DNA of 64,000 bases from Balanoglossus misakiensis. Its lineage: Eukaryota; Animalia; Hemichordata. The DNA lies in assembly GCA_040954595.2 (NCBI GenBank), contig CM082590.2, positions 5,270,001 through 5,334,000 on the forward strand, in the 5' to 3' direction. The position numbers and the translations under genes were made by a program. Positions 26,401 to 58,564 of this stretch are shown in pieces; positions within the stretch are counted from its first letter, which is position 1, and the number at the start of each line of letters is the position of its first letter. The notes beneath the pieces were generated by a model. It saw nothing but the letters and a program-made list of their open reading frames with translations. It did no database searches and was not told the DNA's origin.

Positions 26401-26852
26401 GCAGTTTTAAAATTATTAATCGGTCAGTTCCAGCACTGGCGAAACTGCGTCTCATTAATATATGTACATGTAAATTAAACTGTCACTTTGCCTACAGCCG
26501 AGTATTTTGATTTATACTTCAGATCGCTGTCCTGCGTGGGTGTTGGGTGATTGATGGTGATTCGCTGCTCTGTTTCGGCCTTGGTGTAAATCACAGTCGA
26601 GGATTGACCGTGTGTAAATCTTTTTGCTCGTGTCCGCTTATTATCCGGAGACTTCAGTGGAGTCGCTCAGGTCTGACTGTCAAAAGGACACCGCTAGCAC
26701 AAGTATGCAGTAAATCATGACAGGTTAAGTAGCTCCATGAGTAAACACAAGTACTACATTAGATTACATCTGAGACACATTGCACTGACTACATGATCAT
26801 GTGTCTGCATGGCCACGCAATTGACAATTTACATACAGGTAAAAACGAATAA

Positions 26853-35604: not shown

Positions 35605-38600
35605 CTGCAACAAACAAGAAGACAATGAAATAAACTTTGGATGTTAACAAAAGTGAAAGTTGAAAGGACAGGTAGATGGATGGATGGGTAGATGTATGTA
35701 TGTATGCATTCATGCATTCTCGCATGTTTGTATGTATGTATGAATGTATGTATGTATGTACGTATGTTTGTATGTATGTGATGGCGGGTGGTGGATGGAT
35801 TATTGGATGGGATGGGTCAAATGGATGGACGGATTGAGTGAAACAGTGACATGTGACTGACTGCCTGGATGTATGCAATAAATATGTGAGGTGTAATGAC
35901 AGACACTGATTGGGTGGCCGGATTGGTGGATGAACTATTTGCTGTATATCTTCATTTACCTCGCCAATGCTATCCAGGTAAGATGTAGCTATTCTAAGAA
36001 AGGGCTCTTTAACCAATGGATCAATTTCCTTTACTTTTTCCACATACGTCTTCCAGTACAGAACAGGGAATTTAAGAAGCTCCTTACGCCATAATCGCTT
36101 CTTGTCGACAATTTTGGCACATAACCTTGGTATTTTTTCTTCCTTCTGTAATGCAATGAAAGAATAGAAAATTTGATGAGTAGCTATATTTTTAAATCAT
36201 CGATTCAATGAACTCAGCCATGGAAAATGGGACCAAAGACCATTCCCAAAATGTCAAATGTAATATATACAAATATATATTGCCGTCAACATGCCATTAC
36301 ATAATGCTTTTTAATCACTTCTGAACATCTGGAAACTTTAAGTAATCATACCTGTGTTGGTAAGTGTGTATAGCAACCATCACCAACACCAAGAAAATGC
36401 CCTTAGTATTTCGTGCATTTATATATTATGTTACTACATAACTTGGTTCACTGAGTGAACCTGTGGTAAACAGATAGGGGATGAAAGTTTGAAGAAATAT
36501 TTAGGGTAAACAGGAAAAACTGCATACAGATGAAGATTTGATCGGAGTGATTAATCTAACCTGGCCAATTGTTGTGAGAAATGTTGGAATGATCACTCCC
36601 ATTGAAATAATCGTTTCTGCTGTAGTGTTTTTATCATTTTTGATTGGACAGATATTAAAATCAATATGATATAAAACTAGTTATGCATTTATGTTAAACT
36701 CACCTTGAACCCACGTAAGATCACACGTAGTCTGCCCATTGCTGCACTTTGAGATTCATGACAATTTACCAAAACTGTCTCATCCACGATATTCAAATAA
36801 TCGCCAAATTTCTTCTTCAACTCTTTGCTTACCTTTTCTACAACCCATTTGGCTGTATAAGAAAACATAACAATAAAAAATGGGTTATGGTAATTACGGA
36901 TGTACATGCAAAACGTAAACTGGTAGACTGCATGAACTTATGGGCATGTCACTTGTCCTATAAAATAGAAAAAATGGGTATCGGTATTTAACTAGTATTC
37001 AAAGTAGGCGGGAAATGCACCTTCTGACTAAAAGATTGTATTAAAGTAATTTATGTCAGATCTTTTTGAAAAATACTATCGTGCATCACCTTACAATGAA
37101 TTGTTTCTAAAATACCCCACCCATCAAAATGTGTTGGATGCACAAACAGATATGTTCAAAGCGATTTTGGTTTTACCATTACATTCTAGATTGTGTGCGA
37201 GTGTGTGTGTGTGTACCAGTGTGTTTAACAGTGTATGCATGTTGTAACTGCACTCAAACTAAATGACTTACCACTCTCTTGTTGAGATTCATCCAACATA
37301 TCAGCTCTACTTGCGATCAATATCACAGTTGGTTTGGTGTCTTCACTCCGAGACGAAGCATCATCACTCTTTAGTATGCTGCTTATCATGCCTTTGAAGA
37401 ACTGGGCCCATATGTTGGTCTGAAAATTATCACAATTAATTAATTACCCAATTACAATCAATCAGTCAATCAATCAATCAATCAATTTAATAATTAATTA
37501 ATTAACATTTAATGTAATGCAAGTGTTTTACAGCTAATGGGCTAGTTTTAATATAACACAAGTAAGTAATGATTTGTTTAAATGTTAAAGTGTTGTGGCA
37601 TGTTTTACATGTGTTGAGGGTTTTCACCCAAAATAGTTTGATTGATTTCACAACTAATATCTGCAGAATCGTCACTCCAGGTATGGATTGACTTGTATAC
37701 ACTACCGTCCAGTCATTTAAGAAAATTCACGTGTGACCTTCGCTTCCACTACATTAAGATTGTCTTGCGGATGCAATTGGCAGAATATTTCATAATAGTG
37801 GCACTGTAATGCCACACATAAACTATACCAAGTTCAGAGCTAACAAAAACATGCAAGAAATTATGACAGTCTGTATATGTTAGGCATTGCATCTGTGGAC
37901 CACTCCATCCCCCAACCCGTCCTCAAATGACTAGTTCTATATTTCGACATAGTAGGTTCAAAAGTAGATTTCATTCTAGGGTGTGTGTAGGTGTTTGTTT
38001 GTTTGTGTGTGGCCGTTCTCAAATTACTAGTTCCATATTTGGACATACATGTAGTCGGTTAAATTGGACATACTTTACAGTTTCTATTTCGTTCCGGTGT
38101 GTTTGTGTGTTAAGGGTCATGTCTCACCTCTTTCAGTGCTTGTTCCAACATCTCTATAGGCTTCTTCAAATGTTTTGGGTCATCTTTCACCATGTCTGTT
38201 ATTTTAAACAGAAGCATAAACACAGCATCTTCTGCTCTCAGGAACATGTTGTGTGTCACGTAGTACTCACATTGTCCAGCAAAATCCATGACAATGTATT
38301 CTCCAACCTTTGGTATGGCTACAGTTTTTACATCAATACCAGGTGTTGGTGTGTATCCAGTCTTGTCCGGTGGAGGGGCTTTTTCTGCAGCTCGTCGAGT
38401 GACATTCGCTTTCCAGAAGCCCTGTATGAAAGCAGTTCACATGAAATTGCAGTAAGGGTTTGTGTTGACAGTGACACTGATGGGCGAGTAACACCACCTG
38501 TATCATTTAATCAAACTATTTCACCTGGACATCATGATAATGTTTAATAGATAATAATGACAATAGTTTGGTGAAAAGTAAACAAGTATATATGCTGTAT

Positions 38601-41600
38601 ATTACAATATTCAGAATAAGTGAATAAATGAATAATTTCATAGTATCATTGCAATAGATAAATAATAAATAAATACATAAATAACTTGAAACATCGATGA
38701 AACAGTCGAAGTGGAAAATAGTGTGACGATACAATGTTTGACAAAGATAAGTAGAGATATGAAAATCATTTTACCCGTCGCAAAGATTTCACAAGGGTTG
38801 TCTTTCCAACACCACCAAATCCACAGACATGAACTCTGCTACTATTTCGGGTGATGCCTGGTTCTCTCATCAAAACAGTGAATTCCTTCTTCCTCTGTTC
38901 GGCCTGATGTCAACAAAAAGCACAGAAATCATTGTGAATAGACTTGCCAAATATTGTCAAAATGGACTGTGATATCAAATGAACACGACACTGGCATTAA
39001 TGACAAAATTTGGCTACGACAGCCTAGTCATCATACATATAACAAATTAATCCATTTAGATATATGCAATGTATTTCAAGAGTTTATCAAAAGTGAAAGT
39101 CGTTCATCAGCTAAAATCTGGTAGTGTTTGATAACGTTTAGTCACATTCGTTAAATTCTGGTTTGTTATGCACATGTCAAAGTGCGGTGATTATGAATTG
39201 TGGATGAAACAATGAATTAGAAAAAGGATACCTGTAAGTATCATTTATTGGTAACAGTAACATGAAAGGAACAATATTGTTGGTATTGTCAACAAGTGCA
39301 CAAGTTCCTATTACAGACCCCAAAGTAAGGAGTACAATATTTTAGACCTACCAATTAATGTAACTTAAACGAAACCACATTTAGCAACAACAATTGTTTC
39401 ATAAGCATTACTTTGAAATATAAATTAGACTCAGAGAGGTAAAAACTAAAATCACAACTCTCCAAATTGTTTCTTTTGGTTTTTGTTCTGGAAATGAATA
39501 ACTTGATCTCATTGATGGTTGTATTACAAGTATTACTGTTCATTTTGAATATGACAGTTACTTGTATTTATGGGAAATGTTACCTTCAGCAGGGATTTGA
39601 CTCTTCTGTCGTCTGCAACATCCAGAGGTGTCTTTCCGCCCTGTAACGTGGAAAAAGGATTTTAAGCCCATTGATATGATTTGGTTGAAACTGCTTCATG
39701 ACGTTTTATATGGATCTTCACAAATCTACTATTTGCAAAACACGTATGCCTCTGGTTGGAATTTACTTGAGTATCGAAATGTGACAGTCGGGACAATTTC
39801 CATGGTTTTCTTGTGTTAAACTTTAAAGGGGAGTTCTCGTGGCGCTTTGATTGCCTCACTAATCTCTGCAAATAAAAATGGCTGCTATGGATAGTAGTTA
39901 AGCGAGTGTCACTGACAGTACTAGTATAATGGTGACAGTACATGTTTTGTGCGAGAGAGGGTGGTGTCAGAAGGACTGATATGAGACGACATTACGAAAG
40001 TGATAGTTTGACATGGCGAGCAAACGTGATAGTACAAGCATCATATCATCAGTGGGACTGTCGCATTCGAGGCGTTTTGACCCTCGAGCGAAGTCGCACC
40101 CATGGTGCAATGCCCTTATAGTGGGGTGGCATAACAAAAAAATTCATATCGATTGTGCATTTTGTGATAAAAAGCTCAGATGGGTGTTAATGTGTAATTA
40201 ACTCCATCGGCCATGTAACGCCGGGAACACATAGACTTGTACGCAGGGCTAGGAACACACATTCCCTTACGCACAGACACATACGATACAACCCAACTCA
40301 GAACTCAGCACTCGGCATGAATTGAACGAAGAAATTGCTCCAGCAAAGCCAAAGGGATGACCGTATGTACATGAATACTCATACACATTTGAATGTCAAG
40401 TTTGTATTGATTTTACGGCCACCAAGCAGAAATTCGCTTGAGGGTTTTGACAAATAACATCGGAGGAGGCAAGTGACAGTCAAACATCAGAAAACTGATT
40501 ATGTCTCATGACACGCGGCGACGGTGTGATTTTCGACATTACCTACACAGTCATAAATTTCGACAACATGTGGTGGGAAAGTATTTATAAAAAAATGTAC
40601 GCATGACCACAGCAACACGTGGCAAAGGCGAGCCAAATTCTGACATGAACATTGCGATCATACTGGTGAATTTTACGGCTTCCCAGCAGCCAGCAATCTA
40701 GACTTATCAACTGAAGACCCATCTCCGAAAAAGGTTGGATATTCAGAAATTTTCACTTAGTTTAAATCCTCTTTCCTCATGCAACGGAAGATGTGGAATG
40801 TTTTAAAAAATCTATGCTTTTCACTAGCTTCCGCCCATTTATATAATACGCCCTTTACGGTAACAACAAACTGTACCCGGAAACACCTACACTAGATGAT
40901 TTCATGTCTTCTTACAATTTACAAACACAGAGAAAAAACTGCCAGATTTGATCACCCTGAAATTTTACCCATCCTAAATGCAAAATACATAATAATTTAT
41001 CAAGCCATAGGCCGACCTCATGGCAAGTTTCTACGCTTATTTAAGCCTTCAATTAGGATTGAGCATTGTTTGAATCGTGAACTGGTAGCCTAGGTCACAC
41101 TATATAGGGATTACGCGATATACTCATGTCATCAATGGCAAATTGAGATCTAGCCAATCACAGATTTTCAGTGGGTGGCACACGCGAAAGAAAGAGCGCC
41201 AAATACGTCATTTCAGCCATATATGGGCGTATGTAAGTTGGAGGTGACTGTATACCTTTAAGCATGCACTGCTACACACATTCTGAAACATTCATTTGTG
41301 AGATAGCACAACATGTTTTGCCGAAAGTTTTTTTTTTTTTTTTTTTTTGGGGGGGGGGGGGGGGGAGGGTTAATTAATAGTAGGATACATCCCAGTCCCC
41401 CACGTAATGGACATGAATGCATGATGTGGTGATAGGGCTCTGTCCTTTGAGGGTACATTAACATCACAGGTATTCGTTTACTTGAGATTTATAATACACG
41501 CGTGTGTTGTTTTCATTTGAAGATGCCCTCTGTACAATACCTCAAACAGACAATGATTTAAATATAATAAAAACGTGTCAACTGGTGTGTGAGTGTAGAA

Positions 41601-44600
41601 TAGAATTAGTGTCATTACAGTAACTTACATTATCCTGCACATCGATGCTGGCATTGGATTGCAGTAGATGTTTCACCATGTCAGCATGGCCATCCTTTGC
41701 TGCCTTGTGTAACGGTGCCGAACCATACTGTGGGAATACAACAAATATGTGTCACTGAAAATTCCTGACTATAAGCCTAAAATGGAATATGCAATGTTTC
41801 ATTAAGCATGCACTGTTACACACATTCTGAAACATTCATTTGTGAGATGGCACATGTTTTGCCGACACTTTTTTTTTTCCTTTTTTTTGGGGGGGGGGGG
41901 ATAAATTAATAGTGGGATACATCCCAGTCCCCCACGTAATGGACATGAATGCATGATGTGGTGATAGGGCAGTGTCCTTTGAGGGTACATTAACATCAAA
42001 GGTATTCTTTTACTTGAGATTTATGATACTAGCGTCTGTTGTTTTCATTTGAAGATGCCCTCTGTACAATACCTGAAACTGACTGACCTAAATATCATAA
42101 AAGCCTAGACAGCAGTTTCATTACCCCTTAAAAGAGCATTGGAATTAGCCAATCAAAGAACGCCAATTATGAATGAAAGGTAAGAAATACGTTGAACCAC
42201 TATTGACATTCAACTAATTATGGTGGACTTCAGCCAGACAACTTTTTTAGTCTCGCCAGCCAGACCTCTCTCTCTCTGTCATTCGACGGCATAGCCACAC
42301 GAAGTGCCCCACGAGCAGTGAAGCCACAAGAATCGAGCATCGGAGACAATGTCGCAACTTGAGGCGCCCTTCGTGTGCCTGTGCGCGGCGTCGAAGGATC
42401 GAGGTCTGGCCAGCGAGTAGTCTCGGTTACCCAGAGCCCTCTGCTTCTTCCAGTGGGCACTCCAGAAAGAGGGTCTGGGGAAATACCATTGACAAATTGC
42501 AGGGAAAAGATGGCCGCCTTGAGACAAAAAGCGATGCAGAAGCGGTCCAGAAATATCATGCAAGGGGTGGAGGGAACAGCGTTCAGCCGTCTCGATGGAC
42601 TCTTGCACACTCAAATGACGGATGCAATGCACTGAGTGTGTAATGTGTTGAAAACTGCATCTGCTGGCTCTGAACCTTTAGCGCAACCGAAGTAATCTAA
42701 GTAATTAATGCATCGGTACACACAAACATACGACACAACCCAACACAGAACTCAGCACTCGGCATGAACTGAAAGCAGCAAATGCTTCAACGAAGCCAGA
42801 GTTATTTTTGACTGAGAAGGAAACATGAGGGGAAAGAAGCGAGTGCGGTTCATCAGTTATTGTGCCGTAAAATTAACCCAGCGCCAGGCTTTGAGTCTAT
42901 TGACACCATTTTGGTGTGACCATGAAGTAACATCAAAGTCATTGTTGTGATATATCTGGGATATATTCAAGGAGAGCACAAGAGGACACAGCAGACAGTT
43001 GTTCATTCAACTTCAGGGAGCCCTGTAGTACAGTTTATTACTACGCATGCACACACTACGTCATCATGAATACATGCATATATTACACTGCCTTCCCTTT
43101 AAAAGAAATTGGGTGGCTTGACAAACTTCAACAAATGTCAACTTGTAAACACAACATCTTTGTTAACAACAAAACTACTGAAATTACAAATTCAGTTTCA
43201 CAACAGGTTTTCTGACTCTGTCTGATCTCCTTACAGGTTCTGCAATATTTCCAGGTTTCACTTGTGTATTCTGACTTTGTGTAGCTTGGCCAGAATCACT
43301 AGCAACTTTCACATCAGTATTTTCCACTGGTTGTGGTTTACAAGAATTCTGAACAGGAATTGTACTGAACATTTCAGTTACTGGTCTTTCACAGATATCA
43401 AGATTAGTCAAAACTGAATCATTGAACTCAGTCATAGGCAACTCAGTTTGAAACTCTTCCATGGTTTTCAACATATGATCAGCATGAACTAGTTTAGTCA
43501 TGGATCCTATTTTCACAATGTAATTTCGAGGTCCTTTGACTTCAATGATCGACCCCAATAACCATTTGTCATGTTTGGACTGTGGTCGAGGATTTTTCAC
43601 TCTAACCACATCACCTATTTCAAAGTATCGCTCTTGTTTTCTAGAACGATCAAATTGCTCTTTATGTGCTTCCTGTTTCTTTTCAACCCTTTTAGCCAAA
43701 CAAGGTTTTATCAAACTCAATCTGGTACGAAGCTGTCTTTTACACATCAATTCAGCTGGACTAACACCTGTTGTGCTATGAGGTGTGGTTCTATACCTCA
43801 ATAGAAAATTAGCTATTCTACGTTTCAAAGACATAGATGATCCACCAGCTAAAACTTGCTTAGTGAAACTTTCTTTCACAAGTTTAACTGCTCTTTCAGC
43901 AGCACCATTAGACGCAGGATGATATGGAGCTACTTTAGTAATGAATACCATTTCTTTTCATGAATATGTCAAATTCAGCAGACGTGAATTGTAGGCCATT
44001 ATCTGAAACTAACTGTTCAGGAAGACCGTGTTCAGCAAATATGAGCCTTAACTCATCAATTGTACACTCTGCTGTTATGCTTTTCATTGGCTTCACATCA
44101 ACCCATTTAAAATGACAATCAACAAGAATAAGATAATATGATGTCTTATCTTCACAAAAATCAATATGCACCCTCTGAAAAGGTCTCATTGGCCAAACCC
44201 ATGGATGTAATGGTAATTATATTATATCATGCTACCGTCCGTGATTCTGATTGGACGAGAGCTGAATCCAGCGATGGTAAAATACTGTTTTACCATGGCT
44301 AGCAGTGGTAAAACGGGCCCCTGAACTAGCATTCGGCAGCAAAAATGTGCGGTTAAACCACAGTCGCGCGTGTTTAAACCAAATAAATAAAACAAAAATA
44401 CTGTTGAATTAACGGACGTTTTATTTTGGAACTGCTCTGTGGATATATTTGTCGCCTTGCCACGCGCGATGCCCGTCTTGTCACTTTTTGTCGTCTGCTG
44501 CATGTTTAATGCTCGATCCCGGCCGCGCATGTTTACATTCGTCGTCGCCATTTTGGTTCACGATCGTAATTTCTCTTTCTGACGCCGTTTCAGTAAGAAA

Positions 44601-47600
44601 ATGACACTGATATGCCACAAAAACAGTTGTTGATATAATATAATAGCAATAACCCCCGCCTCAGTCGGGTATACACTCGATTTGGGTACAATTCGCTCCA
44701 TATAGCACTCGCCTGACGGCTCGTGCTATATGTCTCGAATTGTACCCAAATCTCGTGTATACCCGCCTGCGGCGGGGGTTATTGCTTAATTTACTGGGTG
44801 TTGGTCTTGCTCTCTGACATACTGAACAAGCTTTGACCTTGGATTCAATATCAGAATCAATTCCTGGCCACCACACATGACTGCGTGCCAGTGCTTTCAT
44901 TGCACATATTCCTGGATGTTCCCAATGAAGTTCATCCAGCAATTTCTCTCGAAATTTCCTTGGTATGACAACCCTGAGACCCCAGAGAATACATCCTCGT
45001 TCTAGAGATAATTGATCTCTTTTGTGATAATACGGTTTCAATGCATCAGGCATGTCTGTACAATTCTTTGGCCAACCATTCAAAACATAATCATACACTT
45101 TACAGAGAATTGGATTGACCCTGGTTTCTCTAGCAATATCATCGGCTAGAACTGGAAAACTCTCATCAAGTATACCCACAGCAAATACTTTGGAATCAGC
45201 ATCAGTATTGTGCTTACTTGGATTTGGTAATCTTGACAACGCATCACAGTTAGCGTGTGCCGTTGTGTTACGATACTCAATATCATAGTCATATGCCTGC
45301 AGAATTAATGCCCAACGTTGCATTCTTGCAGCTGCTATGGTAGGGACACCCGCTTTTGGACCCAAAATAGCCAGCAGTGTGATCTGTTACAAGAGTGAAT
45401 TTTCTCCCATACAGAAAATCATGAAACTTCTTAACTCCAAATATCAATGATAATGCTTCTCTTTCAATTTGAGCATAGTTACGCTCGCTTGGGCTGAGCG
45501 TTCTAGAGGAATACGCTATTGGTCTCTCATCACCATTTTCGAACACATGTGAGAGAACTGCTCCAACGCCATAACTTGAAGCGTCACAATCAAGCTTCAA
45601 TTTCTTACTCTGATCATAGTGTACCAACAAGGTCTCACTAGTCAAGTTTGCTTTACATGTCTCATATGCTTTTTGACATTTATCGCTTCATTTCCAAACA
45701 ACACCTTTCTTTAACAACTCATGTAGAGGCTGCAATGTGGTAGCTAAATTCGGTAAAAACTGATGGTAGTACTGTACCATACCCAAAAATGAACGCAATT
45801 GTGATACATTATTTGGTACTGGAGCCTGTTTTATGGTTTGTACAGAGGATTCCACAGGTTTCAATCCTCCACCAAATACACAGTGCTAGACTTTGCAAAT
45901 TCACACTTTGACAAATTTACGTGCAAATTATTATCACTCAATCTTTTGAGAACTTGTTCCAAAATATCAAGATTCTCATGAACATTGTCACCCCCAATAA
46001 GGATGTCATCTTGTTTCCAAACACATTTCTGAACACCTTGAAGGATACAATCCATCTTAGTCTGAAATATTTTTGGCGCAGACTTCACACCATATGGTAA
46101 CTTTGTGTACGAGTACAGACCTTTATGAGTATTAATGGTCAAATACTTTCTACTTTCGTCATCAACTGACAATTGAGCATAAGCATGTGTCAAATCCAAA
46201 CGTGTGAATACTTTTGACCCCGACAGTTGAACATACAAATCTTGTGTAGTCGGTAAAGTACACTGCTCATCCTCAACTACTGGATTAATACTTACTTTAT
46301 AGTCACCACAAATTCTGACTGTTTTATCAGCTTTGGGCACCACTAGTATACGATTGGACTTGCCCACTCACACTGATCAACTTTAACTATTACCCCATTT
46401 TTTTTCCAGTTTTGCCAATTCTGTTTTGACTGCTCCACGAAGCGCATATGGAACTCGTCTTGGCTTGTGAAATACATGTTTTGCACCCTCTTTGACACGA
46501 ATATGAGCTTTGTGCCCACGCATACCATCATAGCTATCAGTAAATATGTTACTGTGCTTACGAAGAATCAAATCAAGCCTGTCTTTTGTTTTGGCAGTCA
46601 AACAATCACCAGCTTTTCCTTTACTGATTGTTTGGGCAGTACACAGAAATATCTTACACCAATTTAATTTCAATTTCTGCAACCAATTTCTACCAAGCAG
46701 GGTTGGTTTACCTGGGTGGTCCACTACTATCAATGGCAAATCGACACACTGACCATCATAACATACTGTGACCAAAATTTCACCACAGACCGAAATTGGA
46801 TCTCCAGTATAGCTTTTCAGTCTTACCGAAGATTTCCTCAAGGGACTTTGACTGAATTTCTTGTTATACTCTGTTTTAGACATGATACTGTAGTCAGCTG
46901 CTGTGTCTACGTGCATTGACACGGACTTACCATTCAAATCTAGGCTTACAAAATAGCCAGATTTTTCTCCACTTACATTCATATTGATGGAGGATACAAC
47001 ATTATACACACATGAATCAGAGTCATCACTGTCTTCAACTGTTTCAGTGACTGACTTTACAGATTTAACCATAGGCCTTTTGTCACTTCTGACATTTCCC
47101 TTGGCCTTCACTTTACCTCTAGTTTTACAAAACTTTGCAAAGTGACATTGTTTTGAACACTTTTGACATACTACATTTTTATGTGGACACTCTTTCGCAA
47201 AATGATTGTTTCCACATCTGAAACACTGTACAGTTTTAGAATGTTCACGTTTTACAACACTGTTTATAACAGTACTTTTACCGTGAAGACCTGTAGTAGT
47301 TTATTACTACGCATGCGCACACTACGTCATCATGAATACATGCATATATTACAATTGTGAAATTTTAACAAATATTGCATAATGAGGCAATCCTTAGAAT
47401 AACGCTGTCCGACCATTGAAAACCGATTCCACAGCTTCAGTAGTATCAAATAATGCATCATCTAAAGGTTCCTGTTCTCAAGACGTTGAAATTTGCTTTA
47501 GACACAATTTTGGATTCACTTTCCGGTTCAAGAAAGTAAATGTTATCAATTTTAGCTCTATAAACCGTCATTAGATTAATGGAATAATATTAAATATGCC

Positions 47601-50600
47601 CCACCGACAAATACTTGGAGCATTTTACAAATTTCTCTTGTCAAAAGCCACCGATCTTATCGATTTATGAAAACAAACCACGGTAATAAAATGACCATTC
47701 CCCACTGGTGTACACATGGTTTGGAGGATGTTTAAAGCTATGTTGTCTACAACTTCACCGCCATTGAATGAAAACAAAACAAGAATCAATGTTATCAAAT
47801 TTAACTCTGACACCGTGATTAGGTCAATAGAAAAATATTAAATAGGCCCGACCGACAAATATTTGGAGCATTTCACAAATTTCTTTTAAAGTGTCAAAAG
47901 TTACCGAATTACCCATTTATGAAAACAAAACACGGTAATCAAAATGACAAAACCCTGCTGGTATATACTGTGCCCGTGGTTTGGATGTTTAAAGCTATAT
48001 TGTCTCCAACTTAAACGCTATTGAATAGATACAAAACAAAAATCATTTCCACACAGTCAGCCAGTATGTTGTGGAGTCAGAATAATCTTATGTACTTTCA
48101 CGGCCAATGACCATCCACCTGATGTACCCGACAATATCAATGGAAAACGGGGTGATAAACGTTGGAATTTCGCGAATGTACGTGAATATTTCCAGAAAGA
48201 GACAGAAATCTTGCCTACGTGCGAAACTTAAAAGGTAAGAGTCAGTTATGTCCACAATGCAAATTAAAAAGTCGCCCCGGACCGCCATATTTCAAGCAAA
48301 TTTCGGGCGAAATCCTCAACATATCAAATCCCTCGTCAGAAGAGAGAAAAGGGGATTGACCTTAATACTACAGCTAAGGACCACACTACCCAGACAGTTC
48401 CACTGCGGTCACAGTTTCCACTAAATGACAGGAAATCACCAAACGAAATTAGTAATGTTTCCACTCTCCGCAGAAATTCTCGGCCAGCGACTGTATAGAC
48501 AGGAGAATAAAGCAAACGTGACGGGTAGCCCCACGCTTCACTGTGTAAACCGCGCCAGGGATCTACCTCACCGTTAACAGAAAGTGCTCGCGATTCAAAC
48601 TCATCACAACAATGAACCACTGCTGCTTCACCCTAAACTTACGCGATTGTCAAATATTACTTCCTCGTCAATATCGTCAAAATCAAAACACATCGTTTTG
48701 TTATCAGACATTTTTGGCATATTTTTCAAAATAACTTCAACGGGTGCAGGTGGGAAGAATGCAAATTGAACATACGATCCGACCCCAATAAATTGTTTTT
48801 TTCTAATCATCAAACGTTTATGCGCCACACACACTACACACGAACATACTTATACACACAATACCTTTAAATGAAAACTTGTCCCCGAAGTAAAGCCACA
48901 AAAAAACTCAATCTATAACGCTAACATCACCTTGTGCACTGAGGTTGGTTCTAACTTACCTCGTTTTGTATGTTGACAGAGCATTTGGCTTTCAGTAATA
49001 ACAGTGCTGCTCCTTCCCGACCCCACCATGCTGCCTGATGTATAGGTGTGTCACCACTCTGTAAAATACAAAAACATATCAGACATCAACACTGCAGTAC
49101 TACTTACTGAATGTGGTATTTTTATGAATCGTAATAAGCAATACGGTTCTTTTTCGGCTCAATTTGAATATTTGCATAATTATGCACATTAAATAAAAAC
49201 ACTGTTGGTTTTGTCATTTTATTATTAGAATACCTTTCTTATCACTAGTCATAAACTTTACAAGGGGACACCATGACAGTTGTGATGATCAATGGCTTAT
49301 GCGTACAACAACCTTTACATCAGAAAAGCAATATTTTTTCGGATTGGTCGTTGAGAATGTTGCTACATAAATTCGCCTTATGTGTAAATGCCGGATATTT
49401 CACCACTATTGGGAAAAGTGTCCTGTGGCTTAATCAATCTATAATAGTATTGGACCGTAAGATAAATCTTGGGATTTTAGCCTTCCCGAACGAAAGTTTC
49501 TTTTGATGTGGTCATTTCTAATGTCAAAGTCGAATATCTCAGTATCCTTTTATGAAAATATTTCAGTGCCTATGATGGCACATTTCAATCGATCGGTCGT
49601 TGATGGGGTGTTTTTACAGGACCTTGAAGGATTTAGCCTGGAGCTGGGCATGTCGATTCAACCCTTCTCTTTATTGTATAGAGGAGTGATGCTGGGCAAC
49701 CATACGACGTTGGGCGATCTCTTTTACCGTTATTTACAACATCGACAAACAACAGCAAGAAATGATTCATTGTGTTTTAACAATAATTTTTATCATCATC
49801 ATCATCATCATCATAATCATCATCATCATTTCAACAACAACAACAACAACAACAATAACAACAACAACAACAACAAACAAACAATCACTGTCCACTGTAA
49901 GTTTACAGCGATGCATGTACAGATATGACATGACTGCGATCGCCATGCAACCACAGGTAACTATTACGCGAGTGGCACTGTGTGCACACTCAAATCTCTC
50001 TATTTTGAGATAATCCGAACTGATATTTGGTGTCAATTCAAATACTCGAAATCGAACATTATAAGAGTTTGTTAAACGAAGTGAAATGTGAGATAGACTT
50101 CAAGAGTACCACTGCTTTAACCCACCGACTGTACTGCTCAGATCCGTCTGCACTGAAAATGATATTCTTATACACAAAACAAACAGATGGAACACACGGT
50201 AGATATTTCTACAAGGAAATGCCTTGTGTTAAATCCTTTCTATACATGTGAAAACTGTTTCATCACGTTTTATGAGCGGAGGGATCTTCACAAATCTAAT
50301 TGTATGCAAACCACGCCTTTGGTTGGAATTTACTTGAGTATTGGAATGTTACAGTCGGGACAATTTTCATGGTTTTCTTGTGTTAAACTTTAAGTTCTCG
50401 TGGGGCTGAGACTGACATAAGACGGCATTACGATAGTGATAGTACGAGCACGAGCATCATTTTGTCAGTAGGACTGCCGCTTATAGTGAGGGCGGCCGCG
50501 GCGTAACCAACATTTTCATATCAAGTGGCTCAGATGGGTGTTTATGTGTAATAGACAAATTCCCATAGAGAGCCACTAAATATCTGTTAACGTTAAAGGG

Positions 50601-53600
50601 TGGCCATGGCAACTATTTTAAAACTAGTTTAATTATACAGTAGTAAATAGCGTTAGCGTTACGTCCAAAAGAAGTCGACCACTTCCCCATTGTTAGCTTG
50701 CGTTACACGGCCTCCACCGGTCGCCTACCGCCGGGAACTCACAGACCTGAACGCAGGGCTAGGAACACACATTCATGTACGCACAGAAACATACGACACA
50801 ACCTAACACAGAACTCAGCTATCGGCATGAACTGAAATAGGCACACGCTCCAGCAAAGCCTGAGTTATGACCGCATGTACATGTAGACTCATACACGGCC
50901 GCCAAGCAGAAAAGTCGTTTCGGGATTTTGACAAATAACATCGGAGGAGGCAAGTGACAGGCAATCATCAGGAAACAGATTATGTCTCATCACAGTCCTT
51001 CGGGGACGGTGTGATTTCAATATTACCTACACGTGGTGGGAAAGTATTTAATATAAAATTTAATATATTTAATATAACGAACGGTGACAGCAATACGTGG
51101 CAAGCCAAGTTCTGACAGGAACATTGCGATATTATTGGTGAACTTGTAGGGCTTCCTAGCAGCCAGCAATGCGCGGAATTAGCATATCCTCCGGCGGAAC
51201 AGCTGCATTTCCACACCTACTGAACCCAACTCTGTAAAGGTTGGATTTTCAGAAATTTGCACTTACTTTCATTCCATTCTTCGTACAACGGAAGATGTGG
51301 AACATGTTTTGCTTTACAAAAATCTACGTTTTTCATTAACTCCCCCCTTAATTTGCATAATACGCTCTTTTCGGTAAAAACAAACTGTACCAGGAAACGC
51401 CTACACTAGATGATTTCATGTCTTCGTACAAACACAGAGAAATAAACTGTCAGGTTTAATCCCCCTGAAATTGTTCCTTGCCTTTATACATAATTTTTCC
51501 AGACATCGACCGACCGCGTTATGGCAAGTGTCCACGGCTGTTTAGCCAACATCGAGAAACTTAGATTTAGGCTTATATTGAGCATTTGTGAACAGATAAA
51601 CAGTTAGGCGTAGGTCACACTATACATGTATAGGGCTCAGTCGATATACTCGTGTCAACAATGGCGCGATTCAAGCGCCTGTACCACCTGTTGCAGTCAT
51701 CACCTCAACAAGCTGACTGACTAAATACTTGGAATCGGACAACAGTGTGATAAGGTTTATCAGCGGAATCTAACCGACGTGCCAAGCTCAATGCAATGCA
51801 GGGCCGGGTTAACGCAGATTTGAGTCTTAGCAAGGCTGGCTTCTCTAGCTTGAGTGGTCGTCGCGTCGAGCGCTCTGCATGGATGATACACGTCCTCCCA
51901 TACCAGCGCAATCCCCACTGCAGTCGCCTCGACCTACTAGAATTATCAATTGCCGTCATGCCCAGTCTACGCTACAGTGGGCTGCTTTCTTCATTCAAAA
52001 AAATAATTCTAAAAATAGAATTTCAGGGTTTTATGGGCAATTTTTTTCCAACAAACAATGCACACAAGCGCAGCGCGATGAGAGATTCCGTTTTATAACC
52101 AGTTTATTTATTATAATGTGGTGTGGCAGGCAATATAATTATTGGTCAGAACTGGAATAGAGGATTTCTTTCATGCTTTTATCATTAGAAGGGGCTCTCA
52201 TTTATTTTACCTATATTACAATACACATTTATATTTACAATAATATAAATCTGCTGATCTTGATCTCACATTCATCACAATAAACAACACTCTTTGCTCA
52301 TTCAATAAAAAAAAAACATTACTTCTTGCTCTGAATGATTGATTTCTTTTTTTTAAATCATGATGGAACAATCCATAATTAACGAGACAGGCTGTCGTTT
52401 TTAAAATAGGTTGTTAAGTCTGGGTCGTTGGGAATAAGGCAGAGGAATAGTCGTTAACTATTTATTTTCATTTACCTATGTTCAAAAATGTGTGATATTG
52501 ATAACAAAACGTGACAACTGATGTGTGCGTGTAGACTAGAATTAGTGTGATTACAGTAACTTACTTTATCCTGCACATCAATGCTGGCATTGGATTGCAG
52601 TAGAAGTCTCACCACGTCACCATGGCCATACCTTGCTGCATGGTGTAACGGTGCCCGACCACCCTGTGGGAATACAACAAAATGGTGTCGCTGAAAATCC
52701 CTGACTATAAGTGTATAATGGAACACGCAATGTTTCATTAAGCATGCACTGTTACACACATTCTGAAACGTTCATTTTTGAGATGGCAGAACATGTTTTG
52801 CCGACACTTTTTTTTTGGGGGGGGGAGGGGATAAATTAATAGTAGGATACATCCCAGTCATCCACGTAATGGACATGAATGCATGATGAGGTGATAGGGC
52901 AGTGTACTTTGAGGGTACATTAACATCACAGGTATTCTTATACTTGAGATTTATGATACGCGCGTGTGTTGTTTTCATTTGAAGATATCCTCTGTACAAT
53001 ACCTCAAACTGACGATGATCTAAATATTATAAAAGCCTAGACAGCAGTTTCATTACCCCTTAAAAATGCATTGGAATTAGCCAATCATAGAACGCCAATT
53101 ATGAATGAAAGGTAAGAAATTTGCGGAACCACTATTGACATTCAAATGATTATGGTGGACTTCAGCCAGACAACTTTTTTTGTCTCGCCAGCCAGACCTC
53201 TCTCTTTGTCATTCGACGGCATAGCCACACAAAGTGCGCCACCAGCGGTGAAGCCACAAGAATCGAGCATCGGAGACAGCGTCGCCGCTTGTGGCGCCCT
53301 TCGTGTGCCTGGCCGCGACTTCGACTGAAAGCGAGGTGATGACGGTTTATGAAAGAATCCCACTTTGTAGATTTTCGGTTGAAAAGTCATCCCAAGTTTG
53401 GGGATTATTCCGTTGAAAAGTGACGCTTCTGGGTGGCACATACCCGTACACCTTCCTATGGGAGAACCCCCCGGCCTGTTGTGCAGGGTACATGGCACTC
53501 CTACAATTTACAATTATTTATTTTCGGAGCTTTATTTCGCTTCGTCGTTGTTACTGACAGCTATTACACTACAGTTTGTTTAAATATAAAATAAATGTGT

Positions 53601-56600
53601 CATCGTGCATGTAGCAATAGTTCATGGTTAGGTCCCTAACTTTCGGTCAAAAAGTTAACTATTGGTAGATTATTTATCGAAAAATCTAATTACGAATTTC
53701 GATATGAACACCCTGAACCCAACCTCTCGAATTACTCGACATTTTAATAAAATATTGCTTTATAGTGGTATGATATTCAAAAGTGAATTGGTTGGTCTCA
53801 AAAGAGATGAGAATTTAACTTGGCCGCAGGTATAGCCACTGTCCAAAAACTCTCCCTCAAACTCTTTCATACTCTTCATAATCCTATTATGCATGTCGGT
53901 TTATTGCACTAGTTTCGTGATTGACATCCCGAAGTTCGTCAACACTACAAAATATAAGTACAGAGTCACCTTTTTGGCCGTTCGGGCTATTGGTGAGTAA
54001 GCATGTAAAGCCACTTACCTTATCCTTAGCATTGACGTCAGCTCCATGGTCGATCAACACTTGTGCCACTTCCAGTTTATTGTACCGGGCTGCCACATGC
54101 AATGCTGTGGATTCATCCTGAAATTGACAAATCCATTTGAATTAAAATAAACACAAGCTATGTTCCAATGTTGGACTTGTAAGGTGATATGGCTATAATT
54201 TCAATGGAATTGATTTTTAACTGTAAGTGTTCACTGTGTTGAGTTAAATGTGTGTAGCATCTATAGTTGTTTCAGACCAAAACACACTATTGTTTCAGAG
54301 AACATTTATAACGTGTCCTATAGATTTTTCTAACAAGTGTAAGTGTAACACTATAAAATTATAATGTAGCGCACTATACATGTTTATGCACACTCATCGG
54401 CCCCACAGGTCTTAATATCATTTCATAAATTACATTGATATTTTGAAATTTCCAATCAGACTAAGTACTCTAACATATAAACATGACGGATGTGATACAC
54501 CCGACACAAACAATCCCCTGTTTCTCTGTTGATGTTGGTACGTACGGTACATCAATGTTATAATTACTGAATGTTGCTAGGAAACATCAGAAAAAGAATT
54601 GTCTAAACCAATCTGGACATTTCTCTCAAATTTGTATTTTTTTAAAAAGCGTTTTAGTATACATTGAATGGAACTGAAATCACATATGTCTGGTTCACTG
54701 AATTTAACAAAAAACGTAAAAGTAAAATTGTGGTCGCGCAAATAAGTGTGAAAGTGGAGTTCACTAAACAATTTGAATTCGCCCTTCTAATTAACACAAG
54801 AAAGTTGCTTGTTGAATTTATGTGACCAATCTGATTAAAATCAGATGTAGAGTTAGGCGTTGTCTTTACCTAATAGATGGTGATCATTTTGGCTGTTCTG
54901 TTCTCTGTCTTGGCCTTTCTCGGGTGGATGGTCCGTATCCGAACAGAAAAGCCAAGAATCAGCAATAGTAAAGCCACCGCCTAACATCCGATTTTACCAG
55001 ATAGTTATGTGCCAATCTGAAACGGTCTCTAAGCTCACAATGGCACATAATGCATGGGGCACATGCAATCACTAGCATCCTTCACAAATAAAGATATCGT
55101 CCAAATGGCAACTCTCCAGCCTGCAATGCCACAGATTCCACATATTCTTCGGGTGTCCGCAAATGAAACATTTCAACCTGGCCTTGTCACGACTCTGATA
55201 TTCTCCCTGTATTCCCCATAGACAAGCACTATGTCCTTACTCTGGCATTGTTCTATGTCCATCGAGGTACAGTAACACGTTCATCTTCACACATGTGTGT
55301 TTACTCAATCAAGTAATTTCTACAGCTAAGATATCCATCGAAGAGCCAGAGGAAATAAATATTACAATTAATCAACAGCTGCCCCACCTCAAAGATTCAA
55401 ATCACGCCTGAAGAATACACTTGTAATATAAACACCACAGACTAAAGAAATCCGCACTTGTTGTTTGTGAGGGCAATCAACGGCACTCTTTTCCATGACC
55501 ATATTCACCTGAATTTCGGTCGACTTACGACGCGGGATTTTTAATCTCTACTGTGCTGCTTTTGGGGTTTCAATTATTTGTAAACACTTTCATGTTTTAT
55601 GACATTTGCAAACATCGATCTGGATTTGTCAATAACCTCGCCACAGACTGTTACTGGTCACAATATACAGATAATTGGACATTTCATCCAAAACTATGTT
55701 CTTATTCGTTTCGGTTCCAAATTTCTCATTCTACCCTCAAATTGATATAAGAGAAACAAAGGAGGAAACAAGCTTTATATTTTGACACGTTTTCTATTTC
55801 AAATGCATTAAGCTTGTATATGAAACACAGGAAAGGTTTGTGTTCATCTGTGAGTCAAGGTCAATTAAATCTTTTGTCGCTTCAGATTCGTTACCTGTGT
55901 GACTGGGTTGTACGTGTGAAATGTTGAGTGAGGCAGTGTAAATACTTACAAAGATCAAGTATACACCCTTTGCATTGACATCATAGCCATCATCTATCAA
56001 CGATTGAATCCTTGCAACATCACCATCCTTAGCGGCATTAATGAGATCCTATAACATTCAGTGAAACATACAATTGTTATTTTTAATTATTCCGTTAAAT
56101 ATAAAATTCTTCAGTATTTGAACAGACCGTTGATTATGAACAAACCAAATCACAAACACCCAAGAAATAATACCTAAACTGTTATATCACATTGTATAAA
56201 CTTTGTGCATCGATGATATGGAAAAGTATTCTAATTACACATAAACGTACACGGCTTACACCAAAATATAGATACATGTACTGGAAAATGCCCGGATGAG
56301 CCCTTGGACTCATGATACAGCAACAGTCTCAAGAGAACGGTGAACAAATGCAATGAAAATATCACCATATGAATGTTTGTCCAAACTGTGTGGGCAAGTT
56401 ATTGTGTAGCTGTAGTAGTGTGTGGGTCGCGCGACAGCTTTGTATACCTGGTCGCTGATGTGCTTCCCAAGAAGCATTTTTGACTGTTTGATAGGGCTTG
56501 CATGATTGTCATAAAAGAAATGGGAACAAGGTTATGGTCAATTCACTGTCCAGCCACTCTATTGTTATAGTCTACAGATTTGGGATGTCGTCCTGTTGGT

Positions 56601-58564
56601 CAGAACATGGAATCCACAACCGACGTGGTCAGCAAAGAACGTCACGGCACGGCTGTCACTACACGGCCAAACGGATAACACTTGTTTCCGTTGTGATCAG
56701 CCATAATGTCACGGTCCATGTAGACTAGTTCATTTCTATCGGTTAGAATGTCTCATTTTCATAGTAGTTAACCGTATGCGCATAGGGACTGGTCAGTTTC
56801 TTTTATTTTTCTCTTATGTAATGAATGCAATGAGGTCAGTTTCTTCGACGGGGGTGGATTCTATTTTGTGGATAACAAAAAGTGACTGACCCGACCCCCT
56901 CATTGAACATGGAAAAAATGGGTGAAAATTCCAAAACAGGGTGACCTCTCCCATGAATACACCGCCCCCACCCAGGCCTAATAAACTGACCAGTCCCTTA
57001 TTTCGAAATGCATATGCCATTCTTCTTTGGAGTTGTGGATAATTCACGCACGCGTATAATATCCCTTCATGGAAAAAAAATGTGAGCTTTGATCGCGAAT
57101 AATAAAACATGGTGCAGACATTGCTAAAAGGAAACCATTCCATCGGTTAAATCACGGTCACAAAATACTGGAATTCCAACAAAACAAAAACAATGAATGA
57201 TACGACAACCAGCCCACAATGCACTTCTGAGAACAAAATGACTGACATGTAAATTTGAACAGATGAAGAACTTGCTGGTGTATACCCCCCCCCCCCCGTC
57301 TTGTACATGAAGGCAGAAGACAATAGACCACACTGAAATGTGCTAGTACCTCAATAATTTTTGTAGACATAACTGTTTATTAGAAATAAAAGAACTGATG
57401 CATGGTGTACCTTAATCTTACGTTGAATTGGGATTAAAGCGTTCATTAGCAACTTCTTCACTATGGTATATTAGTGTCTACAGATTTGGAACAAACATTC
57501 TGTGATGAAAATAATGTTTATGGTCAGTAGATATCACAACTTCATGTTTACACATGCACCGATTTAATTTAATTTCTTTTGGGATTACAACAAATATTGT
57601 GTTCTTGGAGAGAGAGTCAGTGTAAAAATGTCGAGGGGATAAATATTCATTTCTTTTTGTTCTTCCAAACTTAAGCGAGGGGTTTGGGTTAAATGAAAAT
57701 AGTTGCATTTGACATGCCTCACGTCATGCATTATTTTCGTGATTTTACTATCAAAGTTCGGTCGGTCGATTTTTAAAAGCTTACTCGAGGGTATGCGAAA
57801 ATGTATCATCAACCTGTCGTGTCGTCTGTCGGCAAAGGATACGGAGAAGATTGAGTCAGCTCATGCGGAATTAATAATTATCCACGACCCCTTATGACCA
57901 ACACCATGCCTGCGTCACCTTGAATGAACTCATTTCGGGTCAAAGGTTATAATTTGGTTTGGCGTCAATCTGACTGCCCCATATATAGACACATTGCCGG
58001 AATAGTTACAAAGTAATACAGACATGGATTTCAATGGGTGTTTTATCTAAAGCTACAACTTGCTCATAAAATTGTGTTTACTTGGGACTTGCTCAACCGG
58101 TAAAATTATTTTTGAAAAATATCGTTCAATGAGACTTGGACTTGTGAATGGAAAACATTGTGATTAGTGTGACTTTTTTGTCAACTGGGTAATCGTTTAT
58201 TTATGAATGCACTATCTAGCAATACACACAAACACTAGAAGTTTCTATATTTTCCGTGTGTAGGGCAAGCTGACCCGTTGAAAAATAATAAACCTATTAG
58301 GCACCGACTAGCGCCACAAGTCTTAACGAAACAGTCATTTGTTTTGTGACCAAAATGTCTGGTTAAATTTACGTGCATGGAGTTGAAGGGAGAAATTTTG
58401 AACAACAGTCCTCAGTCCCCCAAAAATCAAACAAAATATAAACCCCTCATAAAAACAGTCGTCGTACGCGTCACTGCCAGACATCGTTGCATTTGGTGTG
58501 AAATGTCAGTTGCTACAGTTAACAGTTCACTTACCAGTGGATCCTTGACTTTTCTGGAAGCCAT
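34357..58564 (-). CDS. Kinase-less DAPK-like ROCO protein, ANK-ROC-COR-death domain, 12 coding exons, 911 aa: complement(join(34357..35604,35960..36145,36704..36852,37272..37419,38128..38421,38775..38903,39584..39640,41629..41727,48960..49058,52565..52663,54019..54117,55950..56048,58535..58564)) - 13 segments including the short start exon
   Basis: All junctions are GT-AG and phase-compatible; total 2736 nt, no internal stop. GTPase motifs [15 protein letters not shown] and SRAD. COR motifs [10 protein letters not shown] and PGLFPRLQ. C-terminal death-fold signature [10 protein letters not shown]...[10 protein letters not shown]. Confidence 0.85.
35655..35930. repeat. Degenerate (ATGT/ATGG)n intronic microsatellite
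   Basis: Directly visible. Confidence 0.8.
35960..36145 (-). CDS. ROCO exon, COR start (KEEKIPRLC...YLDSIGE)
   Basis: AG/GT, 186 nt, phase 0-0. Confidence 0.88.
36704..36852 (-). CDS. ROCO exon, ROC end (AKWVVEK...LVNCHESQS...GFK)
   Basis: AG/GT, 149 nt, phase 1-0. Confidence 0.88.
37272..37419 (-). CDS. ROCO exon with G4-like motif (TNIWAQF...[11 protein letters not shown])
   Basis: AG/GTAAGT, 148 nt, phase 0-1. Confidence 0.88.
38128..38421 (-). CDS. ROCO exon with switch I/II (TPTPGIDV...[13 protein letters not shown])
   Basis: AG/GTGAG, 294 nt; classic ROC DFAGQxEYYxTH motif. Confidence 0.92.
38775..38903 (-). CDS. ROCO exon with P-loop ([18 protein letters not shown])
   Basis: AG/GTAA, 129 nt, Walker A motif. 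Confidence 0.92.
39584..39640 (-). CDS. C-capping ankyrin exon ([19 protein letters not shown])
   Basis: AG/GTAA, 57 nt, GxTPLDxA motif. Confidence 0.85.
39650..42400. repeat. Intragenic duplication: 39690-41150 ~ 50250-51660 and 41571-42390 ~ 52505-53315 (includes an ankyrin exon); extra intron-only copy at 41258-41570
   Basis: Long co-linear matches by eye; near-identical ORF-track peptides at 41258, 41802 and 52772. Confidence 0.85.
41629..41727 (-). CDS. Ankyrin exon 5 ([33 protein letters not shown])
   Basis: 99 nt, phase 0-0, CAG/GTAAGT. Confidence 0.88.
42248..42420. mobile_element. Academ-like MITE, followed by a second TAGTCTCG-starting element
   Basis: TAGTCTCGCCAGCCAGACCT...AGGTCTGGCCAGCGAG inverted termini; partial copy at ~53180-53315. 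Confidence 0.45.
43184..47290 (-). pseudogene. Frameshifted gag-pol of the Gypsy element
   Basis: Zinc knuckles CFRCGNNH..C and [10 protein letters not shown]; protease VDTAA; [22 protein letters not shown]; RNase H CDASSYG, IEREAL; integrase [24 protein letters not shown]. Split over seven ORFs. Confidence 0.92.
44214..44791 (+). mobile_element. Crypton-like non-autonomous element inserted in the Gypsy integrase
   Basis: TAATT direct repeats at 44214-18 and 44787-91; removal restores [30 protein letters not shown] (44216) pairs with 44631-44644. ~140-nt terminal hairpin 44645-44786. Confidence 0.7.
47538..48045. repeat. Two-copy ~250-bp diverged tandem repeat
   Basis: AATGTTATCAA...CCGACAAATA.TTGGAGCATTT...GATGTTTAAAGCTAT occurs twice. 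Confidence 0.7.
48960..49058 (-). CDS. Ankyrin exon 4 ([33 protein letters not shown])
   Basis: 99 nt, phase 0-0, CAG/GTAAGT. Confidence 0.88.
49791..49882. repeat. (CAT)n(CAA)n compound microsatellite
   Basis: Directly visible. Confidence 0.95.
52565..52663 (-). CDS. Ankyrin exon 3 ([33 protein letters not shown])
   Basis: 99 nt, phase 0-0, CAG/GTAAGT. Confidence 0.9.
54019..54117 (-). CDS. Ankyrin exon 2 ([33 protein letters not shown])
   Basis: 99 nt, phase 0-0, CAG/GTAAGT. Confidence 0.9.
54828..55003. mobile_element. Small MITE with imperfect TIRs
   Basis: ATCTGATTAAAATCAGATGT..GTTAGGCG versus CGCCTAACATCCGATTTTACCAGAT. Confidence 0.5.
55010..55520 (+). mobile_element. Degenerate Tx1/L1-clade LINE ORF2 C-terminal fragment
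   Basis: Frame-hopping peptides [23 protein letters not shown] and [13 protein letters not shown] match the zf-RVT region and the following helix of Tx1-type ORF2. Confidence 0.55.
55950..56048 (-). CDS. N-capping ankyrin exon 1 ([33 protein letters not shown])
   Basis: 99 nt, phase 0-0, TAG/GTAAGT. Confidence 0.85.
56785..56997. mobile_element. PIF/Harbinger-like MITE
   Basis: GGGACTGGTCAGTTT...AAACTGACCAGTCCC flanked by ATA/TTA. Confidence 0.6.
58535..58564 (-). CDS. Probable first coding exon of the ROCO gene ([10 protein letters not shown])
   Basis: ACCATGG Kozak context, GTAAGT donor, phase 0 matching the next exon. Confidence 0.65.

Follow-up and report, generated by a model that had tools for sequence, protein, structure and literature searches.

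An ankyrin-Roc-COR gene of the acorn worm Balanoglossus misakiensis belongs to a family with hypervariable codons on a predicted binding face

Introduction

Do two nearly identical ankyrin exons of an acorn worm record selection for change on a binding surface, and in what kind of protein do they reside? The question is raised by a stretch of 64,000 nucleotides (nt) from the hemichordate Balanoglossus misakiensis (GenBank assembly GCA_040954595.2, contig CM082590.2, positions 5,270,001 to 5,334,000 of the forward strand), here called the window, with coordinates counted from its first letter. Its exons 41629-41727 (copy A) and 52565-52663 (copy B) are duplicates, and the original prediction, made from the letters of the window, held that an excess of replacement over silent differences, concentrated on the ligand-binding surface, reflects diversifying selection on a recognition domain, as expected of a pathogen or non-self sensor. 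We report that the repeat unit to which both exons belong, a cassette of one exon with its intron, is multi-copy in public sequencing contigs, that three of its codons very probably evolve under diversifying selection, and that the surrounding gene, intact in frame, encodes an ankyrin-Roc-COR protein of the GTPase (ROCO) family with a predicted death domain.

Results

Variation in the cassette family

Family data came from the contigs of three public runs of one sample (X1, X2 and X3), of which 359, 335 and 6, respectively, aligned to the 901-base unit, and 124, 52 and 8 to the 131 bases around copy B. Since X1 and X2 share only 0.41 and 0.36 of the words of the window and several copy-A letters are absent from both, they likely represent another haplotype or individual than the window DNA. 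The cassette is multi-copy in the contigs of the sample; summed contig depth, which falls about tenfold over codons 4-14 of the cassette, was not read as copy number. Because a 1% floor hides single-copy variants wherever summed depth is high, only codons 5-14 (depth <3,700) were compared. The site test left out the 3' half of the exon, with summed depths of 7,000-21,000, and codons 1-4 and 29-33, where no rows are listed near the ends of the stretch.

Within the 131-base stretch, codons 8, 11 and 12 together span 9 bases and account for 21 of the 35 variant rows, and several of their positions show all three alternative bases. A uniform spread of changes, which the original prediction had named as part of one outcome that would speak against it, was not seen. 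Across the zone of codons 5-14, 21 of the 27 alternative bases possible at these three codons are observed, compared with 4 of 15 at silent positions (p 0.002). Depth-weighted diversity, computed on unphased contigs that mix alleles and paralogs and exclude copies less than 80% alike, was 0.47 at the first and second positions of codons 8, 11 and 12 versus 0.05 at the 7 silent sites lying among these codons (rank test, p 0.006), and averaged 0.02 at 11 framework replacement sites. It reached 0.68 in the variable codons, while four-fold sites 1-6 bases away stayed at 0-0.03 in X1 and 0-0.21 in X2, and codons 9, 10 and 13, placed between or beside the variable ones, were nearly fixed. The hypervariability is codon-precise. 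Diversifying selection on particular residues would be expected to leave such a pattern, which is hard to obtain from relaxed constraint or from imported tracts that carry silent sites along, and on this sequence evidence we regard diversifying selection at codons 8, 11 and 12 as very probable.

Variants also occur at codons 1, 3, 32 and 33 (40 of 90 rows shown). At codons 32-33 (41629-41634), four alternative bases that look linked are present in about 40-50% of the listed depth, which suggests two cassette subfamilies.

The exon pair of the window

Both exons of the pair lie on the minus strand, are 99 nt long, in phase 0 and flanked by AG and GT. As had been claimed from a hand alignment, they differ at 14 of 99 bases, with 13 replacement differences and a single silent one (codon 28), and 10 of 33 residues are changed (codons 1, 3, 8, 11, 12, 15, 17, 19, 20 and 33). 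Codons 1, 3 and 8 carry double-base differences, but all mutational paths there are replacements, so the 13:1 count stands. The introns were described as roughly 90% identical, which agrees with 55 mismatches in 694 aligned columns (7.9%) for the intron alone. Replacement divergence exceeds intron divergence (13/75 versus 55/694, p 0.01); the rate of the silent change does not differ from the intron rate.

The changes were compared with the positions randomised in designed ankyrin repeat proteins (DARPins), for which we take six cassette codons to be the equivalents; codon 8 is presumably outside the classical random positions and fixed in the classical library. Five of the six DARPin codons are changed as against 5 of the 27 others (p 0.005), and for the six alone clustering has p 0.003-0.005. 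When codon 8 is joined to them, a choice made post hoc after the pair had been inspected, the seven codons hold 9 of the 14 base differences, with p 1.8e-4 given 14 differences and, by simulation, p 1.5e-5 at the intron rate and 0.003 at the higher rate found beside the splice acceptor. Solved DARPin sequences confirm the register, their repeats varying at codons 3, 11, 12 and 31. The placement of the variable codons on a binding face is a prediction from this register and from papers in which the randomised positions sit on the concave face (PMC8229355). The claim that the changes concentrate on the binding surface thus holds for the 9 differences in seven predicted binding-face codons and fails for codons 15, 17, 19 and 20, which lie off that face. 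In the family, codon 15 has the copy B state in all listed contigs and codon 17 in 87-100%, and codons 19-20 have no variant row relative to copy B among the rows listed.

Gene model and domains

Thirteen exons, running from 58564 to 34357 on the minus strand with GT-AG introns throughout, join into a single open frame of 911 codons (Table 1). The ankyrin part comprises five 99-nt phase-0 exons, one repeat per exon. The exons of the pair are not adjacent and not a simple tandem, because a more distantly related ankyrin exon, missed in the original prediction, stands between them (48960-49058). The model begins 10 codons before the capping repeat, like the Ptychodera flava proteins P0003 and P0005, and no signal peptide or membrane segment is evident in it by eye. 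Searches of both strands of the window with tblastn and a hidden Markov model (HMM) found no further, spare or inverted ankyrin exon, and no other coding sequence related to the family was found in the rest of the window.

Table 1. Exons of the gene model and other features of the window.
Feature	Position	Strand	Basis and remarks
Exon 1	58535..58564	-	ATG, 10 codons, GT donor, phase 0; like the N-termini of P. flava P0003 and P0005
Exon 2, 99 nt, N-terminal capping ankyrin-like repeat	55950..56048	-	tblastn 72% to P0003 residues 11-42; weak Pfam Ank_4; AG/GT
Exon 3, 99 nt, ankyrin repeat	54019..54117	-	Pfam Ank E 3e-11; AG/GT, phase 0
Exon 4, 99 nt, ankyrin cassette copy B	52565..52663	-	Pfam Ank E 2e-10; multi-copy, hypervariable codons 8, 11, 12
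Exon 5, 99 nt, ankyrin repeat of another type	48960..49058	-	tblastn, HMM; Pfam Ank E 4e-6; shares 47-51 of 99 bases with the pair
Exon 6, 99 nt, ankyrin cassette copy A	41629..41727	-	Pfam Ank E 1e-8; shares 85 of 99 bases with copy B
Exon 7, 57 nt, C-terminal cap	39584..39640	-	78% to P0004 residues 303-320; related cap exon joined to cassette exon in run X3
Exon 8, Roc G1 P-loop	38775..38903	-	G1 motif at model residue 222; tblastn
Exon 9, Roc G2 and G3	38128..38421	-	Pfam Roc E 0.0013, below curated cut-off; motifs
Exon 10, Roc G4-like motif	37272..37419	-	Homology, motif, splice sites
Exon 11, end of Roc	36704..36852	-	Homology, splice sites
Exon 12, start of COR	35960..36145	-	tblastn to homologs; no Pfam match alone
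Exon 13, end of COR-A, COR-B, predicted death domain (~34420-34752), stop	34357..35604	-	Pfam COR-B E 6.5e-7; predicted fold
Duplicated exon-plus-intron unit, copy A	41570..42394		89.3% over 830 columns to 52506-53324
Duplicated exon-plus-intron unit, copy B	52506..53324		Counterpart of copy A
Third, exon-less partial copy of the cassette intron	41258..41572		86-89% to 41802-42102 and 52738-53034
Broken Ty3/Gypsy-type long terminal repeat (LTR) retrotransposon, intron between exons 5 and 6	42946..47353	-	Pfam protease, reverse transcriptase, RNase H and integrase pieces in several frames

The Roc motifs G1, G2 and G3 and a G4-like motif are present in order; the homolog P0003 passes the Pfam Roc cut-off, which exon 9 of the window does not. 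COR follows directly, with a COR-B match above the Pfam cut-off, and the structure predicted for the last exon (mean predicted local distance difference test score, pLDDT, 82.6) matches the Roc-COR of C. tepidum (Chlorobium; E 1e-7) and LRRK1/2, which supports a predicted COR fold. The C-terminal 111 residues are predicted to form six helices, and their model best matches the MyD88 death domain (Z 11.4, root-mean-square deviation (rmsd) 1.7, 89 aligned). In a second structural aligner the top 13 rows are all death domains; Foldseek ranks death domains first too, but with a best E of 0.08 and none <0.001. For NB-ARC there is only a match of 30 residues below the cut-off, at P-loop level; no NACHT or NB-ARC ATPase was found, and the structure match identifies the module as Roc-COR. 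A kinase found no match in the 23 scanned of 42 upstream minus-strand frames of at least 45 codons, a region bounded upstream by an exon like that of hnRNP A1, and a kinase family is listed for none of 13 acorn-worm homologs. Domain matches and structure models describe the gene as one for an ankyrin-Roc-COR protein with a predicted death domain.

Splicing of family members

None of the runs that contain the DNA is registered as RNA; X3 is labelled 'DNA?' and was treated as RNA-like solely on account of exon joints at splice sites in its records. In these records the cassette exon is followed, from the splice site on, by an exon of the exon-3 type, the exon-5 type or the cap type, or by another cassette exon 99 bases on; the four junction types may stem from different genes. 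No such joints occur in the contigs of X1 and X2. Because the adjoining exons differ from those of the window at several bases, the X3 records represent alleles or paralogs, and none of them contains the exact variable half of either exon of the pair. Family members are spliced as modelled, a statement that holds for the family.

Homologs in acorn worms and amphioxus

A search with the last exon returned 14 proteins, 13 of them 'DAPK1-like' or uncharacterised proteins of acorn worms and one a weak choanoflagellate match; the P. flava matches reach 52% over the whole query, and 58% over 83% of it. A second search gave 81 matches, of which 9 are P. flava Roc-COR proteins and one is an amphioxus protein, the others being ankyrin-only. 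The window protein, identical to none of the listed proteins, clusters with the paralogs P0004 and P0017 of P. flava (support 95/89; tree of 17 rows). The family is therefore older than the split from P. flava.

The homologs carry between 2 and 17 ankyrin repeats. Among 18 close repeat pairs, chosen on framework positions only from the 55 of 64 motif matches kept by the filter, binding-face positions differ at 54 of 126 compared with 29 of 126 for other exposed positions, a class of our own assignment based on ankyrin structure (p 0.0006). The excess is carried by Glandiceps (23/42 versus 6/42) and amphioxus (9/14 versus 0/14).

The amphioxus protein, P0019, is an ankyrin-Roc-COR protein with two CARD matches; CARDs thus stand where the window protein has its predicted death domain. 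Among the four internal repeats of this protein, 19 residues of the convex half are the same throughout, yet positions 8, 11 and 12 differ.

Other features of the window

The exon-less partial cassette ends at a TTAA site, where unrelated sequence begins. The same junction is present in contigs of X1 and X2, and the acceptor side has no second occurrence within the window. The unit looks like a by-product of cassette gain, loss or exchange. The retrotransposon has a 56-base terminal repeat that is 98% alike and a 5-base target duplication, and its upstream LTR ends after about 60 bases. The introns downstream of the two cassette copies share further sequence in the same order (40202-41139 with 50712-51665, 69%; 39688-39846 with 50252-50407, 82%), which goes back either to a larger duplication of greater age or to elements of the same kind that inserted repeatedly.

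Upstream of the gene, a glycine-rich exon at ~62025-62170 on the minus strand resembles the low-complexity tail of hnRNP A1 (Pfam E 0.009, below the cut-off) and is likely, from its sequence, the 3' part of a neighbouring gene. Nested degenerate tandem repeats fill 1-9400 (periods of about 155 and 238 bases) and 9414-26700 (kilobase-scale copies 65-92% alike); neither block matches the window ROCO protein. A palindromic stretch of 330 bases at 27466-27796, 81% alike to its own reverse complement, is possibly a foldback element.

Discussion

We favour, with fair confidence, an explanation in which an intact gene for an ankyrin-Roc-COR-death protein belongs to a family whose multi-copy cassette is under diversifying selection at predicted binding-face codons, the protein sensing, inside the cell, foreign ligands that change (microbial or non-self). 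The binding-face codons are likely under such selection because the protein likely senses ligands that change. The observation is real, and the locus is very probably under selection and probably functional. The pathogen or non-self sensor of the original prediction is a role that we infer from the Roc-COR and death domain architecture and from analogy, and a microbial driver is a weaker step than diversifying selection itself.

Several results weigh against this explanation. The 13:1 ratio of the pair is by itself non-significant: with some 24-28 silent sites, the probability of at most 1 silent difference among 14 is 0.06-0.12, and Fisher's test gives p 0.05-0.10, depending on transition bias. 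As a proof of selection the ratio was rejected (p 0.05-0.12); the originally proposed diversifying selection on the binding face finds its support in the contig diversity of the family, and the ratio of the pair does not carry it. The four off-face replacements, among 13, appear private or rare in copy A. The 63 intron bases preceding the exon contain 10 differing sites (16%; p 0.013 versus the remaining intron), and because of this a converted or more divergent tract in copy A may contribute to the pair; at the local 16% rate 10 residue changes are unremarkable (p 0.62), and clustering still has p 0.003. P. flava repeats show no binding-face excess (21/63 versus 20/63), nor does the single Saccoglossus pair (1/7 versus 3/7), and a stricter filter, which keeps 43 repeats and loses all of amphioxus and most of Glandiceps, leaves an overall p of 0.03. 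Single-exon Pfam scores for Roc, COR-A and Death are below curated cut-offs. Finally, the family site test counts 7 silent sites in unphased contigs of one sample, weighted by depth.

The strongest alternative retains the selection and the switch and replaces the ligand: in place of a microbial one, it would be polymorphic and stem from the worm's own species or genome, whether in allorecognition, in the compatibility of gametes or cells, or as proteins of selfish elements, as in fungal NLRs of the het type. The sequence data would suit either class of ligand, and fungal NLRs with near-identical, positively selected repeats are described only from allorecognition in the parts of the papers drawn on (PMC13449251, PMC4986451). 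However, the gene model has no evident signal peptide or membrane segment, and a family of many loci would suit pathogen pressure better than a single compatibility locus. Acorn worms, moreover, are solitary. We consider a self ligand unlikely, though it is the best of the alternatives.

Somewhat less probable again is an origin without positive selection, in which surface codons are unconstrained, the framework is purified and gene conversion patches short tracts of older paralogs into the first half of the exon. The non-significant ratio of nonsynonymous to synonymous change (dN/dS) in the pair, the raised divergence in the adjoining 63 intron bases and the lack of a binding-face excess in P. 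flava would all fit such an origin, and silent sites near splice sites may be constrained themselves. Nevertheless, unconstrained sites are expected to vary at about 5-8%, like silent and intron sites, while diversity in codons 8, 11 and 12 climbs to 0.68; an imported tract would bring silent differences with it, and the adjacent four-fold sites stay low; and the clustering within the pair holds up when the local rate of 16% is assumed.

Targeted mutation or somatic diversification, in place of selection across generations, might explain the presence of all three alternative bases at several positions in one sample, but it is very improbable: the variants occur in ordinary- and high-depth contigs of two DNA runs, as expected of germline copies, the pattern keeps the register of codons and protein (codons 9, 10 and 13 being nearly fixed), codons 8, 11 and 12 contain no CpG, and neither a template repeat nor a mutator gene was seen in the window. 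Equally improbable is that one exon of the pair is a dead, unspliced copy in neutral drift, for although copy A has its four off-surface replacements, lies behind a retrotransposon and before a truncated cassette, and no spliced record of the variable half of either exact exon was seen, both exons retain splice sites, frame and ankyrin framework residues, the differences avoid framework and silent sites, and one repeat of human ankyrin-2 has the residues of copy A at positions 19-20. The decay of a never-spliced exon, the other outcome named in advance as contrary, was thus not observed: the frame is intact, and members of the family, if not these exact exons, are spliced.

Under the favoured explanation of a sensor of changing foreign ligands, the ligand would bind the concave ankyrin face and thereby switch the Roc-COR GTPase unit (a nucleotide and dimer switch). 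The death domains would then cluster and recruit a death-domain adaptor of the MyD88 or FADD type, which would lead to inflammatory or cell-death signalling. Phase-0 cassettes could be gained, lost and exchanged through recombination in their near-identical introns, with exchange keeping the framework alike and selection spreading new residues at codons 1, 3, 8, 11, 12 and 33. A bolder and rather doubtful extension is a genome-wide pool of exchangeable one-repeat ankyrin exons, combined by splicing into a natural DARPin library, that would give each animal its own receptor repertoire and couple it through Roc-COR to death-fold adaptors.

Comparison with known systems

Brown-algal LRR-ROCO proteins, candidate immune receptors, resemble the window protein in their Roc-COR core and in having one repeat per exon of the same phase. 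In these algae, exons are duplicated and exchanged, concave-face residues are positively selected, alternative splicing has been proposed and function is inferred (Zambounis et al., PMC3341825; Teng et al. 2024, PMC11378527). The algal exons encode leucine-rich repeats (LRR; 72 nt) where those of the window encode ankyrin repeats (99 nt), and the window gene comes from an animal host and has a C-terminal death domain by prediction. Its introns lack inverted or inactivated repeat exons, showing one exon-less partial cassette. Moreover, selection in the algae was established with codon models, in contrast to the comparison of site diversities in unphased contigs made here.

Certain fungal NLRs have ankyrin repeats almost identical to one another, in which positive selection acts at five sites of the concave face (Dyrka et al. 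2014, PMC4986451; PMC13449251). The likeness lies in selected sites on inner helices and hairpin, in repeat exchange between genes and in the link to a cell-death effector. However, the fungal proteins are NACHT or NB-ARC ATPases and the window protein is a putative Roc-COR GTPase, with repeats that are N-terminal and split into single exons, and with a C-terminal death domain as the candidate effector. NLR (STAND) receptors in general share the pairing of a variable repeat sensor with a death-fold effector, in an order reversed in animal NLRs. By analogy, the window family may work like brown-algal LRR-ROCO proteins and fungal ankyrin NLRs, but it belongs to neither.

DAPK1, of ROCO group 3 (PMC6337361), has ankyrin repeats, Roc-COR and a C-terminal death domain in the same order and no LRR. 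Unlike DAPK1, the window protein has neither kinase nor calmodulin-binding domain, and its family is multi-copy, lineage-specific and variable in repeat number, whereas DAPK1 is one conserved gene. Since it lacks the kinase, the window gene is not a DAPK1 orthologue despite the names in databases; the 'DAPK1-like' ankyrin-Roc-COR proteins of P. flava, Glandiceps talaboti, Saccoglossus kowalevskii and Branchiostoma share its architecture, and their names are automatic only. The cassette resembles DARPins in that its 33-residue framework is fixed and the variable residues sit in the hairpin and the first helix (PMC8229355); it differs in being natural, in that codon 8 is among the most variable here, and in that codon 31 is unchanged in the pair.

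Roc-COR (AP-GTPase) proteins with fast-evolving LRRs have been treated as bacterial conflict systems, and the same source reports hemichordate expansions of other death-fold immune families, distinct from that of the window (PMC8195603). The portions consulted of PMC8195603, PMC11463336 and PMC6321704 do not describe the window family. Likewise, the open literature, with subscription papers and supplements (which may hold lists of ROCO architectures) outside its scope, yielded no account of any animal ankyrin-ROCO family that is hypervariable.

Significance

Hypervariable repeat receptors encoded by exons and built on Roc-COR have been described in brown algae, and fungal NLRs include hypervariable sensors made of ankyrin repeats. 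If our favoured explanation is true, an animal family would unite both, with a death domain as output, and the immunity of invertebrate deuterostomes would gain a class of variable receptors that act inside the cell. It makes the idea of ROCO proteins as NLR-like sensors testable, and it offers naturally selected binding surfaces on the scaffold used by DARPin engineers. The window locus, with its two cassette copies, is a small member, and the finding lies in the family. Should the doubtful reading of the cassettes as an exchangeable library also prove true, it would reveal an overlooked system of variable receptors beside NLRs and TLRs, with a death domain as output in acorn worms and CARD in amphioxus, and would hint at what ROCO proteins, DAPK1 and LRRK2 among them, originally did.

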